Positions 1 through 5,372 of a stretch of 5,372 bases of DNA are shown in pieces. The DNA lies in IMG/VR virus record IMGVR_UViG_2690316148_000006. The stretch is one strand, 5' to 3'. Position 1 is the stretch's first letter. Each line of letters begins with the position of its first letter. The notes under the pieces were generated by a model. That model saw only the letters and a program-made list of their open reading frames with translations. It ran no database searches and had not been told where the DNA came from. Both the position numbers and the translations under genes were made by a program. Source of the stretch: a virus. Lineage: Duplodnaviria; Heunggongvirae; Uroviricota; Caudoviricetes.

Positions 1-83
1 TGGTAGTGTCCGCTATTGCCAGTACACCTCACTCTGACGGAGAGTTTGTGGCAGTGGCTGCGGTGACCGTCAGCGCACCATAA
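1..83 (+). CDS. 3' end of an upstream tail gene, probably the major tail protein (lambda V-like); 5'-truncated by the window
   Basis: Open frame from codon 3..5 to TAA at 81..83, translating ...VVSAIASTPHSDGEFVAVAAVTVSAP*. It sits immediately upstream of a G/GT chaperone pair, which is where the major tail protein gene lies in lambda-like phages. Only 26 codons are visible, so the identity is by synteny rather than by sequence. Confidence 0.45.
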   Translation, partial: VVSAIASTPHSDGEFVAVAAVTVSAP

Positions 84-141: not shown

Positions 142-528
142 ATGTTTCTGAAACAGGATACGTTTAATTATGAAAAACAGTCCGTGGTGCTCAGTGAGCT
201 GTCCGGGCTGCAGAGAATTGAATATCTGACGTTTGTTCAGCAGCGAACGGCAAAGTTTGATGCACAGGAGGGAGAACTGCCGGAGGCTGAACGACAGATT
301 GCTTTTCTGCGTATGGGAATGGATATCAATGCCTGGCTGGTTTCCCGCTCACTGTGGAATGCTGAGCAGTCTCAGGATGTTGAGACGCTTTGCGCATCCA
401 TTATGACAACATGGTCGTATGATGCGCTGGGCGCGGGGGCGGAGAGGGTTCTGTCGCTGAGCGGTATGGGGACCATTGAGAATGCCGGGGATGATGATCA
501 TGAGGCGCTGACGCCGGAAAAGTCCTGA
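142..528 (+). CDS. G: Tail assembly chaperone (lambda gpG-like)
   Basis: ORF ending at TGA 526..528. The protein begins MFLKQDTFNYEKQSVVLSELSGLQRIEYL, resembling lambda gpG (MFLK...TLSELSALQRIEHL, from memory). GGAG at 132..135 gives a 6-nt spacer to the ATG at 142. The ATG at 139 and the TTG at 124 used by the ORF track are less likely starts; TTG 124 overlaps the terminator T-run. Confidence 0.85.
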   Translation: MFLKQDTFNYEKQSVVLSELSGLQRIEYLTFVQQRTAKFDAQEGELPEAERQIAFLRMGMDINAWLVSRSLWNAEQSQDVETLCASIMTTWSYDALGAGAERVLSLSGMGTIENAGDDDHEALTPEKS

Positions 529-866
529 CGCGGGAAATGCAGTTTGTCATGCGGCTTGCCCGGGAGTTCCGGCGGGCAGACTGGCGGCGGATGCTGTCGG
601 ATATGTCGGCCACTGAGCTTGGTGAGTGGGGCGATTATTTCCGGATGCAGAGCTTCAGTGATGTGTGGATGGATGCGCAGTTTGCCTCGCTGAAGGCATT
701 GATCGTGAGAATGGTGTCCGGCAGCAGCGATGCTGCGGTGGCTGATTTCAGCCTTTTACCGGAAGAGAACGGGATACCGGAGCGAACGGACGAAGAACTG
801 ATGCATCTTGGGGAAGGTATTTCCGGAGGTGTGCGTTATGGACCAGATAGCCAACCTGGTCATTGA
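142..866 (+). CDS. T: Tail assembly chaperone GT fusion made by a programmed -1 ribosomal frameshift near the 3' end of G (lambda gpGT-like)
   Basis: The -1 frame relative to G is closed by TGA at 501..503, opens at 504 and runs to TGA at 864..866. The only window for the shift is therefore 504..526, and it contains the A-rich heptamer GGAAAAG at 516..522. The arrangement matches the conserved G/GT frameshift of lambda-like tail gene clusters. The T-frame portion alone has no plausible independent start; ATG 537 is downstream of the slip site. Confidence 0.7.
516..522 (+). promoter_or_regulatory. Candidate -1 frameshift slippery heptamer G_GAA_AAG (G to GT)
   Basis: Zero-frame codons GAA(517..519) AAG(520..522); -1 codons GGA(516..518) AAA(519..521). 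This is a one-base variant of the lambda heptamer G_GGA_AAG and the only slippery-looking site in the 504..526 window where both frames are open. Confidence 0.55.
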
Positions 867-2839
867 TTTGGGGATTGATGCGGCAGAGTTTAAAAATGAA
901 ATTCCCCGTATCAAAAACCTTCTGAATGGTGCAGCCAGCGATGCAGAACGGTCTTCTGCCCGTATGCAGCGTTTTATGGAGCGTCAGACTCAGGCGGCCC
1001 GGCAGACAATGCAGGCGGCTTCTTCGGCTGCAACAGCAGCATCAGCCCATGCGCAGACGGGTTTGTTCCACCTCACGGGCCATGCGTTCATGAGCCNNNN
1101 NNNNNNNNNNNNNNNNNNNNNNNNNNNNNNNNNNNNNNNNNNNNNNNNNNNNNNNNNNNNNNNNNNNNNNNNNNNNNNNNNNNNNNNNNNNNNNNNNNNN
1201 NNNNNNNNNNNNNNNNNNNNNNNNNNNNNNNNNNNNNNNNNNNNNNNNNNNNNNNNNNNNNNNNNNNNNNNNNNNNNNNNNNNNNNNNNNNNNNNNNNNN
1301 NNNNNNNNNNNNNNNNNNNNNNNNNNNNNNNNNNNNNNNNNNNNNNNNNNNNNNNNNNNNNNNNNNNNNNNNNNNNNNNNNNNNNNNNNNNNNNNNNNNN
1401 NNNNNNNNNNNNNNNNNNNNNNNNGAGGAACAGGCCACCCGGCAGAAAGCGGCGTTTATCCGCCAGCTTAAAGAGCAGGCAACCCGCCAGAATCTGTCGT
1501 CTTCTGAGTTGCTTCGCGCCAGGGCGGCTCAGCTGGGGGTAAGCAGTGCTGCAGAAGTGTATATCCGCAAAATGGAGCGGGCAGGAAAAGCCACACATTC
1601 GCTGGGGCTGAAAAGTGCGGCAGCCCGGCGGGAGCTGGGGGTGTTAATCAGTCAGATGGCGCGCGGCAATTTTGGTGCGCTGAGGGGATCCGGGATAACG
1701 CTGGCTAACCGTGCCGGATGGACAGGCGCACTGATGTCGCCGAAAGGCATGATGACTGGCGGCGTTATTGGCGGACTTGTCGCGGCGGTCCTGGGTCTGG
1801 GTAAAGCCTGGCATGACGGCCGGAAGGAGGGCGAGGAATTTAACCGTCAGCTGGCGCTGACGGGACATTATGCCGGTGTCACTGTCGGGCAGTTGTGGAA
1901 ACTCAGCCGGGCCATATCCGGGAATGGTATCACGCAACATGCGGCAGCCGGTGCGCTGGCACAGGTGGTGGGCAGTGGGGCATTTCATGGAAACGATATT
2001 GGTATGGTGGCGAAAGCTGCCGCACAGATGGAGCGATCGGTTGGCCAGTCGGTCAGCGATACCATAAATCAGTTTAAGCGGCTGAAGGATGATCCTGTAA
2101 ATGCCGCGAAGGCGCTGGACAATGCGCTGCATTTTTTGACTGCCACTCAGCTTGAGCAGATACGCGTCCTTGGGGAGCAGGGGCGGTCCAGTGATGCGGC
2201 CCGGATCGCCATGTCTGCGCTGGCAGAGGAAACCGGTAAACGCACATCTGATATTGATAATAATCTCAATGCGCTGGGTAGTACGCTGCAAACCTTGTCT
2301 GACTGGTGGAAGCAGTTCTGGGATGCGGCCATGAATATTGGTCGTGAAGACTCGCTGGATGCGCAGATTGATGCGTTACAGGAAAAAATTCAGCGCGCGA
2401 AAAAATATCCGTGGACAAACGCCTCCACACAGGTGGAGTACGATCAGCAGCGTCTTAACGATCTTCAGGAGAAAAAACGCCGGAAGGATTTGCAGGATGC
2501 AAAAGCGCAGGCAGAACGGAATTACCAGGAGCAACAGAAACGCCGGAATGCTGAAAATGCCGCGCTGAACCGGATGAATGAAACGGAANNNNNNNNNNNN
2601 NNNNNNNNNNNNNNNNNNNNNNNNNNNNNNNNNNNNNNNNNNNNNNNNNNCAGAAACGCCGGAATGCTGAAAATGCCGCGCTGAACCGGATGAATGAAAC
2701 GGAAGCTGCACGACATCAGCGTGAAAATGAACGTTACGAAAAAGCCATTAAGAAAAATACACGGGCAACCCGTAATGATGAGGCCACCCGGTTATTGCTG
2801 CTGCCAGACAGTCAGCAGGCATTGCCACTGAAAGGATGA
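838..2839 (+). CDS. H: Tail length tape measure protein (lambda gpH-like), N-terminal and central part; interrupted by two N runs and ending at a frame break
   Basis: ATG at 838 with GGAGGT at 826..831 (6-nt spacer). The N-terminus MDQIANLVIDLGIDAAEF resembles lambda gpH (MAEPVGDLVVDLSLDAARF, from memory). After the first N run the protein continues in the +0 phase from 1425 with a Gly/Ala-rich hydrophobic segment (GALRGSGITLANRAGWTGALMSPKGMMTGGVIGGLVAAVLGLG) and coiled-coil-like K/R/E/Q-rich sequence typical of tape measure proteins. After the second N run it continues in phase 2 to TGA at 2837..2839. Phase changes coincide with the N runs. Confidence 0.7.
1097..1424. other. Run of 328 N (assembly gap or masked sequence) inside the tape measure gene
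   Basis: Contiguous N characters. The tape measure frame is phase 1 before the run and phase 0 after it, so either the length is not exact or the hidden sequence contains a frame-changing feature. Confidence 0.95.
2535..2704 (+). repeat. Exact 54-bp direct repeat (2535..2588 and 2651..2704) immediately flanking the second N run
   Basis: CAGAAACGCCGGAATGCTGAAAATGCCGCGCTGAACCGGATGAATGAAACGGAA occurs identically on both sides of the N run. Copy 1 ends at the last base before the Ns and copy 2 starts at the first base after them. Both copies encode QKRRNAENAALNRMNETE in the tape measure reading frame. Confidence 0.8.
2589..2650. other. Run of 62 N (assembly gap or masked sequence) inside the tape measure gene, flanked by identical 54-bp sequences
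   Basis: Contiguous N characters. The frame goes from phase 0 before to phase 2 after; it becomes consistent if the Ns plus one repeat copy (116 nt) are removed. Confidence 0.95.
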
Positions 2840-3936
2840 CTGAAGCGCATAAACAGCTTCTGGCCCTGCAGCAGCGCATCAGCGACCTGGACGGGAAAAA
2901 GCTGACGGCAGATGAAAAGAGTGTGCTGACCCGTAAGAATGAGCTGATTCAGGCGCTGACGCTGCTGGATGTGAAACAGCAGGAGCTGCAGAAACAGACA
3001 GCGCTTAACGACCTGAGAAAAAAAACGGTTCAGCTGACCAGCCAGCTGGCAGACAAAGAACGTGCACTGCGTGAGCAGCACAATCTGGATATTGCCACTG
3101 CAGGTATGGGGGATAAGCAGCGGCAGCGCTACCAGGCACAGTTGCGCATCCGGCAGGAATACCGGCAACAGTTGCAACAGCTTGAGAATGACAGTCGCCA
3201 GAAAGGCACTTACGGGACGGAGGACTACCGGAGGGCTGAGGAGGTGCTGAAGGGGAGCCTGAAGCGACAACTGAATGAAAACAAACGCTACTGGCAGGAA
3301 CTGGAAGTGGCGCAGGGCGACTGGAAAAACGGTGCCATGCGGGCGTTTCAGCATTTTACGGCGGATGCGGATAATGCGGCGGGAACGGCAGAACAGATGT
3401 TTACAGTGGCATTCAGCAGTGCCGGTAATGCACTGGCGACATTCTGTACCACCGGTAAGCTGAATTTTAAATCCTTCACCTCTTCCCTGTTGTCAGATAT
3501 GGCCAGAATTATGGCACAGATGGCCATGATGCAGGCGGTAAAGGGCGTCGGTTCTTTATTCGGCTTCACGACTAATGCTGATGGCGGTGTTTACCAGTCT
3601 GCTGATTTGAGTCGCTACAGTGGCACGGTGGTTAACCGTCCGACGTTTTTTGCTTTTGCAAAAGGCGCGGGTGTGATGGGGGAAGCGGGACCTGAAGCCA
3701 TTCTGCCACTGCGTCGCGGTGCTGATGGTAAGCTGGGGGGTGTGGCGGATACTGGTGGTTCAGGCATGGTGATGTTTGCCCCGCAGTACAACATTGAGAT
3801 CAATAACGATGGCACGAACGGGCAGATAGGTCCGGCTGCCCTGAAGGTGGTTTATGACCTCGGGAAAAAAGCGGCCGCGGACTTTATGCAACAGCAGGCC
3901 CGTGATGGTGGCCGGTTAAGTGGAGCATACCGGTAA
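2836..3936 (+). CDS. H: Tail length tape measure protein (lambda gpH-like), C-terminal part; same gene as 838..2839, either a separate cistron joined by an ATGA overlap or the downstream half of a frameshifted gene
   Basis: A 366-aa ORF whose C-terminus, ...NIEINNDGTNGQIGPAALKVVYDLGKKAAADFMQQQARDGGRLSGAYR*, matches the conserved lambda gpH C-terminus (INNDGTNGQIGPAALKAVYDMARKGARDEIQTQMRDGG, from memory). Its frame is open from 2782. The ATG at 2836..2838 overlaps the upstream TGA at 2837..2839. The stop TAA at 3934..3936 overlaps the M start at 3936. Confidence 0.8.
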   Translation: MTEAHKQLLALQQRISDLDGKKLTADEKSVLTRKNELIQALTLLDVKQQELQKQTALNDLRKKTVQLTSQLADKERALREQHNLDIATAGMGDKQRQRYQAQLRIRQEYRQQLQQLENDSRQKGTYGTEDYRRAEEVLKGSLKRQLNENKRYWQELEVAQGDWKNGAMRAFQHFTADADNAAGTAEQMFTVAFSSAGNALATFCTTGKLNFKSFTSSLLSDMARIMAQMAMMQAVKGVGSLFGFTTNADGGVYQSADLSRYSGTVVNRPTFFAFAKGAGVMGEAGPEAILPLRRGADGKLGGVADTGGSGMVMFAPQYNIEINNDGTNGQIGPAALKVVYDLGKKAAADFMQQQARDGGRLSGAYR

Positions 3937-4265
3937 TGGAGACGTTTCACTGGAAAGTGCGCCCGGATATGAATGTGGTATCAGAGCCGAAAGTGGTGAC
4001 AGTGAAGCTGGGCGATGGTTATGAACAGCGTCGTGCGGCGGGACTGAATAACCAGTTGTCGACTTACAGCGTGACGATACGTGTTCGTAAAGGTGAACAC
4101 CCATTTTTAAAAGCCTTTCTGGAACGGCACGGTGGCGTCCGCGCATTTCAGTGGACGCCACCTTATGACTGGAAGCCGATCAGGGTGGTTTGTCGTAAAT
4201 GGTCGGCAAGCGTGGGGGCGTTGTGGGTAACCATAACGGCAGATTTTGAACAGGTCGTGGCATAG
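3936..4265 (+). CDS. M: Minor tail protein M (lambda gpM-like)
   Basis: A 109-aa ORF, METFHWKVRPDMNVVSEPKVVTVKLGDGYEQR...FQWTPPYDW...ADFEQVVA, closely resembling lambda gpM (MKTFRWKVKPGM...FGDGYSQR...WTPPYEW...AEFEQVVN, from memory). Same size and same position between H and L. The start overlaps the H stop as TAATG. Confidence 0.9.
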   Translation: METFHWKVRPDMNVVSEPKVVTVKLGDGYEQRRAAGLNNQLSTYSVTIRVRKGEHPFLKAFLERHGGVRAFQWTPPYDWKPIRVVCRKWSASVGALWVTITADFEQVVA

Positions 4266-4274
4266 GAGGCTCTG

Positions 4275-4973
4275 ATGCAGGATATTCCACAGGAAACACA
4301 TCATGAGACGACACGCCTCACTCAGTCAGCCCAGGTGGTGCTCTGGGAAATCGATCTGACAGAGGTCGGTGGTGAACGTTATTTTTTCTGTAATGAGCAG
4401 AACGAAAAAGGTGAGCCGGTTACCTGGCAGGGGCGGCAGTATCAGGCATACCCCATTCAGGGGACGGGATTTGAACTGAACGGCAAGGGCAGTGCTGCCC
4501 GTCCGACACTGACGGTTTCTAACCTGCACGGAATGGTCACCGGGATGGCGGAAGACCTGCAGAGTCTGGTCGGCGGAACGGTGGTCAGGCGTAAGGTTTA
4601 CGCCCGTTTTCTGGATGCGGTGAACTTCGTCAACGGAAACAGCGACGCCGATCCGGAACAGGAGGTGATCAGCCGCTGGCGCATCGAGCAGTGCAGCGAA
4701 CTGAGCGCGGTCAGTGCCTCTTTTGTGCTGGCCACACCAACGGAGACGGATGGCGCGGTTTTCCCGGGGCGTATCATGCTGGCGAATACCTGTATGTGGA
4801 CTTACCGTTCTGATGAGTGTGGTTACACGGGCAGGGCAGTGGCTGACGAGTTCGACAAACCAACGACGGATATCCGGAAGGACAAATGCAGCAAGTGTAT
4901 GCGCGGGTGTGAGTTGCGCAACAATACCGGTAATTTCGGCGGTTTCCTTTCCATCAATAAACTTTCTCAGTAA
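4275..4973 (+). CDS. L: Minor tail protein L (lambda gpL-like); C-terminal Cys cluster consistent with an Fe-S binding domain
   Basis: A 232-aa ORF with AGGAGG at 4264..4269 and a 5-nt spacer to the ATG at 4275. It begins MQDI and contains VVLWEIDLTEVGGERYFFCNEQNEKGEPVTWQGRQYQ and ...FGGFLSINKLSQ, matching lambda gpL over nearly its whole length as I recall it. Conserved cysteines lie in ...LANTCMWTYRSDECGYTG...KDKCSKCMRGC... Confidence 0.92.
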   Translation: MQDIPQETHHETTRLTQSAQVVLWEIDLTEVGGERYFFCNEQNEKGEPVTWQGRQYQAYPIQGTGFELNGKGSAARPTLTVSNLHGMVTGMAEDLQSLVGGTVVRRKVYARFLDAVNFVNGNSDADPEQEVISRWRIEQCSELSAVSASFVLATPTETDGAVFPGRIMLANTCMWTYRSDECGYTGRAVADEFDKPTTDIRKDKCSKCMRGCELRNNTGNFGGFLSINKLSQ

Positions 4974-4977
4974 ATCC

Positions 4978-5372
4978 ATGACACAGACAGAATCAGCGAT
5001 TCTGGCGCACGCCCGGCGATGTGCGCCAGCGGAGTCGTGTGGCTTCGTGGTGAGAACGCCGGAGGGAGACAGGTATCTTCCCAGCGAGAATATCTCCGGT
5101 GAGCCGGAGGAACGGTTCCGGATGGCTCCGGAGGACTGGCTGCGGGCACAAATGCAGGGTGAGATTGTGGCGCTGGTCCACAGTCATCCCGGTGGTCTGC
5201 CCTGGCTGAGTGAGGCTGACCGGCGGCTGCAGGTGCAGAGTGATTTGCCGTGGTGGCTGGTCTGCCGGGGGGCGATTCACAAGTTCCGCTGTGTGCCACA
5301 TCTTACCGGGCGGCGCTTTGAGCACGGGGTGACGGACTGTTACACGCTGTTCCGGGATGCTTATCATCTGGC
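4978..5372 (+). CDS. K: Tail assembly protein K (lambda gpK-like), N-terminal MPN/JAMM domain; 3'-truncated by the window
   Basis: ATG at 4978, 4 nt after the L stop (4971..4973), open to the window end. Translation MTQTESAILAHARRCAPAESCGFVV...EIVALVHSHPGGLPWLSEADRRLQVQSDLPWWLVC...RRFEHGVTDCYTLFRDAYHL closely resembles lambda gpK. It contains a JAMM-type H-x-H-x7-S-x2-D motif (HSHPGGLPWLSEAD, nt 5179..5220). The ORF is absent from the supplied track, presumably because it has no stop inside the window. Confidence 0.9.
   Translation, partial: MTQTESAILAHARRCAPAESCGFVVRTPEGDRYLPSENISGEPEERFRMAPEDWLRAQMQGEIVALVHSHPGGLPWLSEADRRLQVQSDLPWWLVCRGAIHKFRCVPHLTGRRFEHGVTDCYTLFRDAYHL

Follow-up and report, generated by a model that had tools for sequence, protein, structure and literature searches.

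The break in the tape-measure gene

If the tape-measure gene of a lambda-like prophage changes reading frame at an ATGA, is it a functional gene that is split into two cistrons, a pseudogene, or an assembly error? We considered this question for a stretch of DNA of 5,372 nucleotides (hereafter, the window), which is contig CXDF01000214.1 of a draft genome of Shigella sonnei (NCBI assembly GCA_001253095.1). Genes in the window are arranged as in a lambda-like tail module (gpG-like, gpT-like, tape-measure, gpM-like, gpL-like, and gpK-like genes). The tape-measure gene follows the G/T chaperone genes and precedes gpM/gpL, which is where a tape-measure gene of the lambda family should be. The window contains these features:

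1..31, + strand: 3' end of an IS600 (its last 31 nt); window position 1 is position 6232 of L017, which is this locus in the complete chromosome CP180280.1
32..83, + strand: 3' remnant of the tail-tube gene V, 52 nt (17 codons and TAA); aligns to locus L001 from 1048, within the tail tube CDS at 359-1099
142..528, + strand: intact gene for a gpG-like tail assembly chaperone (Pfam Phage_TAC_2, E=2.7e-40)
537..866, + strand: gpT-like gene, in a frame that is open from 504 by direct reading (Pfam Phage_tail_T, E=3.9e-15)
838..2839, + strand: N-terminal fragment of the probable tape-measure pseudogene, from the ATG at 838 (Pfam TMP_2, E=1.9e-46)
2836..3936, + strand: C-terminal fragment of the probable tape-measure pseudogene, 366 codons (Pfam Tape_meas_lam_C, E=5.4e-25; only positions 29-72 of 77 of TMP_4)
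3936..4265, + strand: gpM-like minor tail gene (Pfam Phage_min_tail, precomputed)
4275..4973, + strand: gpL-like minor tail gene (Pfam Phage_tail_L, precomputed)
4978..5372, + strand: gpK-like gene, truncated by the end of the contig (Pfam Prok-JAB, precomputed)

In the zone where G and T overlap (504-528), lambda's slip heptamer GGGAAAG is absent, and the sequence reads CCG GAA AAG TCC TGA. GGGAAAT is present at 531-537, directly past the stop codon of G.

Direct reading and translation confirmed the codon positions that a preliminary description of the window had given for the break. The upstream frame (phase 2) ends with ...NDEATRLLLLPDSQQALPLKG*, and its stop codon is the TGA at 2837-2839. 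Phase 1 is open from 2782, just after a TGA at 2779-2781, and translates as GHPVIAAARQSAGIATERMTEAHKQLLALQQRISDLDGKK... (also given as GHPVIAAARQSAGIATERMTEAHKQ...). Between 2782 and 2836, phase 1 contains no ATG, GTG, or TTG. The ATG at 2836-2838 overlaps the stop codon of the other frame, to give ATGA at 2836-2839. The preliminary description was also right that AAGGA (2831-2835) abuts this ATG, with a spacing of zero. We considered an internal promoter that would drive the C-terminal open reading frame and rejected it, as we found no promoter-like site in 2651-4000.

We estimate a probability of roughly 90% that the split gene is an ordinary frameshift pseudogene in a decaying lambda-like prophage of S. 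sonnei, and that it arose by a 43-bp deletion between direct repeats.

Assembly artefacts and the reality of the break

The window contains two runs of N (1097-1424 and 2589-2650). By comparing the window to the complete chromosome, we found that the other frame changes in the window are scaffolding artefacts at these two runs:

1061..1424, no strand: 36-nt fold-back and 328 N, in place of 314 nt of real sequence (comparison with L017)
2589..2704, no strand: 62 N and a 54-nt duplicate of 2535-2588, which is a spurious insertion of 116 nt (comparison with L017)

At the first artefact, window 1047-1096 is the reverse complement of L017 7308-7357 and should lie just downstream. The sequence folds back at a 14-nt inverted repeat, and between the flanks (window 1060 is L017 7291, and window 1425 is L017 7606), the gap region exceeds the true 314 nt by 50 nt, and a false frame change results. 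At the second artefact, 2535-2588 and 2651-2704 are identical; these are overlapping contig ends that were not merged, and they create a second false frame change. Consistent with this, the flanks of the second gap overlap (window 2588 is L017 8769, and window 2651 is L017 8716), and gap-free contigs read straight through. The N-terminal fragment is unbroken at 611 codons in the gap-free copies (for example, it is one open reading frame at 838-2673 of contig L003). The idea that the N runs are masks over real sequence was rejected: the deposited record of this contig (L013) has identical N runs, and the gap-free contigs show the true content.

The break at the ATGA is independent of the N runs, as had been claimed, and is also present in five gap-free loci (L003, L009, L015, L016, and L017). 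A lambda-family tape-measure gene should be a single uninterrupted frame, and all of the gap-free copies have open reading frames of 611 and 366 codons instead.

Could the break still be a sequencing or assembly error, as the preliminary description allowed? The true gene would then be uninterrupted, and the low-quality scaffold would have made the break. The contig is a poor draft, with artefacts flanking both N runs (the fold-back at 1047-1096 and the duplication of 2535-2588 at 2651-2704), and the second gap ends only about 150 nt before the break. However, the identical junction is present in four N-free contigs (L003, L009, L015, and L016), as well as in PGAP-annotated contigs, in the Logan assemblies of ERR1009120 and ERR5975928, which were built independently from raw reads, and in the complete 4.92-Mb chromosome CP180280.1. 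Indeed, every other assembly that we checked and that spans the site has this junction, and these assemblies are from several sequencing centres and assemblers. Overall, we found the DNA junction in 16 of the loci that we fetched, from at least 12 distinct assemblies. The 31-mer across the junction is in 4 IMG/VR contigs, and the exact 366-aa and 611-aa products are each encoded by 17 contigs, all of which are labelled as Shigella sonnei. Furthermore, a repeat of only 8 bp could not make a de Bruijn graph collapse. A base-call error in a homopolymer was rejected as well, as there is no run of 4 or more bases in 2760-2845. An error at this site is extremely unlikely.

The exact junction had no match in a collection of genome contigs, perhaps because GTDB has no separate representative genome for S. 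sonnei, and it had no match in a collection of metagenome contigs. We searched the literature for this specific break in the tape-measure gene of S. sonnei and found nothing specific.

A 43-bp deletion between direct repeats

To identify the lesion, we compared the window to intact alleles. The nearest relative among complete genomes is a prophage of E. coli CFSAN029787, whose 1013-aa tape-measure protein (WP_046881168.1) is encoded by a single open reading frame of 1013 codons. The window is 99.8-100% identical to this allele upstream of the break and 99.3% identical downstream. The intact allele has two copies of the 8-bp sequence ATTGCTGC, whose starts are exactly 43 nt apart, and its 43 extra nucleotides lie exactly between the two copies. 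In the window, the junction is inside ATTGCTGC at 2794-2801, which is 35-42 nt upstream of the ATG at 2836, and the sequence that spans the junction is CGGTTATTGCTGCTGCCAGACAG. The alignments place two deletions and their consequence as follows:

2717..2721, + strand: junction of a 66-bp in-frame deletion (22 codons), with CAGCG microhomology (alignments; the repeat offsets are 66 nt apart)
2794..2801, + strand: junction of the frameshifting 43-bp deletion, in the 8-bp direct repeat ATTGCTGC (alignments to intact alleles)
2801..2839, + strand: twelve out-of-frame codons (LPDSQQALPLKG) and then TGA (translation, versus RLLLQYSQQQAQVEGQIAAARQSAGIATERM in the intact protein)

The preliminary description suggested a comparison with intact relatives, and this comparison was informative: phages cdtI, mEp460, and PhiR40_1 and E. 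coli IAI39 all retain the 43 nt and read through in one frame. Among 5,426 complete genomes of E. coli, the close matches did not include the allele with the 43-bp deletion; every top match had the extra bases.

Why would a deletion at this site break the gene? The two copies of ATTGCTGC in the intact gene are read in different frames (LLLQYSQQQA versus IAAARQSAGI), so any deletion between them must shift the frame. The likely route for the loss of 43 bp between the two 8-bp repeats would be replication slippage or illegitimate recombination. With the frame shifted, translation would add 12 wrong codons and then end at the first out-of-frame stop, which would happen to overlap an ordinary internal methionine codon as ATGA. 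One reading in the preliminary description was a defective tape-measure gene in a decaying prophage, caused by a 1-bp indel. The defective gene and the decaying prophage agree with our reading; the 1-bp indel does not, as the lesion is a 43-bp deletion between 8-bp direct repeats.

The effect of the deletion on the protein can be seen from its domains. The intact allele has TMP_2, TMP_4, and Tape_meas_lam_C (Pfam). After the split, the N-terminal fragment carries TMP_2, the C-terminal fragment carries Tape_meas_lam_C, and TMP_4 is truncated: the 43-bp deletion cuts through this domain, which is at residues 613-690 of the intact protein. The split also drops 26 residues relative to the intact protein.

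The 66-bp segment is missing from the window relative to all intact alleles, and it is polymorphic in S. sonnei. In particular, contig L014 has the 43-bp deletion and retains the 66 bp, so the 66-bp deletion was probably a later or separate event.

The prophage is decaying

Next to the split gene, the prophage has lost much of its structural module. In the complete chromosome CP180280.1, the order of genes is antiterminator Q, IS600, holin, lysozyme, Rz, DUF1441, a stub of the large terminase subunit, and another IS600. This is followed by the last 52 nt of V, then G, T, 2.9 kb without any gene calls, M, L, K, I, J, Lom, and IS21. The IS600 at 4999-6262 of this locus (TGAGGTAGCC...CACCTCA) joins the terminase stub (121 aa, matching positions 2-80 of 247 of GpA_ATPase) to the remnant of V. 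The other IS600 is near the lysis genes, and the IS21 is downstream of the tail genes. The window is homologous to the intact prophage L001 only from position 32 on. Positions 1-31 are the end of the IS600, and this accounts for the shared first base of many draft contigs.

About ten head and tail genes (~10 kb) are gone at the IS600 junction. A related head-to-tail module (L007) shows what would fill the missing interval: portal, protease, decoration protein, capsid, FI, FII, Z, U, and V. With the terminase, head, connector, and tail-tube genes lost, neither a tail tube nor a head can be produced from this locus. Erosion has not been heavy further downstream: in the complete chromosome, the genes M, L, K, I, J (1159 aa), and Lom remain intact. 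The frameshift would then lie in a prophage that also lacks its terminase, head, connector, and tail-tube genes, due to the IS600-associated deletion, and no tail could be built from the locus.

Two other loci bear on this history. L015 (positions 1-1244, from the Logan assembly of ERR1009120) has U, V, G, T, and the split tape-measure gene with both deletions, and it lacks IS600 and Ns. Some isolates may lack the IS600 deletion, so that the broken gene is in a more complete prophage, or else this contig may be a path through a paralogous prophage. This ambiguity bears only on the order of events and not on whether the gene is a pseudogene. In L007 (positions 1-9761), the full head module leads into G, T, and the tape-measure gene, and an allele of the intact type is chained to the deleted allele across a run of N. 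This suggests that a second related prophage is present in S. sonnei, and that the contigs broke where it caused the assembly graph to branch.

Other drafts of S. sonnei show additional differences. There is a further IS600 inside gpM in L014 (3137-4400). In L010 and L003 (4807-6243) and in L008 (1-7400), there are tandem second copies of the M-L-K-I tail genes, which are about 12% diverged. The additional IS600 and the tandem copies may reflect genuine rearrangements among several lambdoid remnants, or the scaffolds may be chimeric.

Overall, we found that the orthologues have a single frame at this site, that the lesion is reproducible across independent assemblies, and that other essential phage genes are missing or disrupted, all of which are characteristic of a frameshifted pseudogene in a defective prophage.

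Is the ATGA a functional junction?

The preliminary description's remaining reading was a genuinely split gene, expressed either as two coupled cistrons or by a -1 slip. We found no support for either version: the intact relatives have a single frame that contains the ATGA, there is no heptamer of the form X XXY YYZ, and TMP_4 is cut. We consider the two versions in turn.

Translationally coupled genes in bacteria often overlap as ATGA. If ribosomes terminated at the TGA (2837-2839) and reinitiated at the ATG (2836), then products of 611 and 366 amino acids might serve in tail assembly, together or separately. Besides the familiar arrangement, three observations fit this idea: the 366-aa open reading frame is intact and retains Tape_meas_lam_C, the neighbouring genes G, T, M, L, K, I, and J are intact, and a second allele with an independent deletion ends at the same ATGA. 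This second allele is the tape-measure gene of E. coli O121 201805972 (PWR57_RS13040), which PGAP labels as "frameshifted." It has a 46-bp deletion between 11-bp repeats (ACAGTCAGCAG), at about 3705-3760 of L002 (NZ_CP119441.1) and within the same region of roughly 50 nt. The 46-bp junction is also found in an IMG/VR contig (L030, 5531-5555).

However, the coincidence is mechanical. The deletions of 43 bp and 46 bp are both 1 mod 3, so both alleles run into the same first TGA, and their agreement is not evidence of a conserved split. Also, GGATGAC is invariant in all of the intact homologues that we aligned, including phages cdtI, mEp460, and PhiR40_1 and E. coli IAI39, and the ATG at 2836 is an internal methionine codon of the intact gene (within ...IATERMTEAHKQ...). 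Since the ATGA already exists in every intact allele, it did not evolve for coupling; the overlap is incidental, and the TGA is simply where the shifted frame first meets a stop. Among the sequenced phages that we compared (cdtI, mEp460, and PhiR40_1), none has a split homologue, so the two-cistron form is not conserved in functional relatives. The Shine-Dalgarno-like AAGGA has no spacing from the ATG, a Pfam domain is cut and 26 residues are dropped, and the locus has no tail-tube, head, or terminase genes. Infectivity of phage TP901-1 depends on both the N-terminal and the C-terminal region of its tape-measure protein (PMC5099701); here the two regions would be on separate chains, and presumably they need to be on one. 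We consider a functional two-cistron gene to be very unlikely, although some reinitiation at the ATG at 2836 may occur.

As for the -1 slip, a programmed ribosomal frameshift within 2782-2839 could restore a nearly full-length tape-measure protein. The two frames overlap by 58 nt, and the shift that would be required is -1. Lambda-like phages shift in this direction, too, at the nearby upstream G/T site (reviewed in PMC5009743). But there is no zero-frame X XXY YYZ heptamer in 2760-2840 and no homopolymer run, and the two-frame arrangement is absent from all of the intact relatives. We give a programmed frameshift almost no credence.

Implications

If the gene is a frameshift pseudogene, then its two halves should be annotated as one pseudogene. 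This fits with the lack of any gene call there in the complete chromosome. In contrast, the halves appear as two different "tail length tape measure proteins" in Prokka-style annotations of S. sonnei drafts. Beyond annotation, the pseudogene is of little importance. It does illustrate how an ATGA "junction" can form passively: the shifted frame meets a pre-existing out-of-frame stop beside an internal methionine codon. Similarly, an imperfect direct repeat that is read in two frames may be a small, recurrent hot spot for deletions.

More speculatively, a reinitiated 366-aa fragment, along with the G, T, M, L, K, I, and J genes that remain intact, might provide components of the tail tip to a lambdoid phage that shares the cell or superinfects it. 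Or, the out-of-frame repeat might be a recurrent hot spot that disables this family of tape-measure genes in different hosts. We consider these possibilities to be very unlikely.

Comparison with known systems

Lambda's tape-measure protein, gpH (NP_040595.1), is encoded at the equivalent place in the gene order, with G/T ahead of it and M, L, K, I, and J behind it. Like the intact allele, it has Tape_meas_lam_C, and it aligns to residues 277-1013 of the intact protein at 25% identity (E=5e-46). The intact allele is longer (1013 aa, versus 853 aa for gpH). The copy in the window is interrupted centrally, at about residues 470-485 of gpH.

The intact 1013-aa tape-measure genes of lambdoid prophages from E. 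coli and Shigella are much closer. The window has 99-100% nucleotide identity to the allele from CFSAN029787 and has the same flanking genes. Unlike the intact genes, the allele in the window lacks 66 bp (in frame) and 43 bp (shifting the frame).

The pseudogene in E. coli O121 201805972 is in the same type of prophage, at the same hot spot, with the same consequence for the frame and the same terminal ATGA. It differs in being a separate event, with 46 bp lost and the 66-bp segment retained.

More broadly, IS600 is among the five insertion sequences that have expanded in all Shigella (PMC7373316), and complete genomes of S. sonnei contain roughly 660-710 pseudogenes as annotated by PGAP (PMC12795559). 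This locus resembles the cryptic lambdoid prophages of Shigella and E. coli that have been eroded by insertion sequences. Its insertions of IS600 and IS21, a large deletion of structural genes, and pseudogenes due to point mutations or indels all accord with what has been published on the spread of insertion sequences and the burden of pseudogenes in Shigella (PMC7373316, PMC12795559). We see no substantive difference between those prophages and this locus. The split tape-measure gene is of an already-known kind, and it adds one example to the documented decay of Shigella prophages that is driven by insertion sequences.
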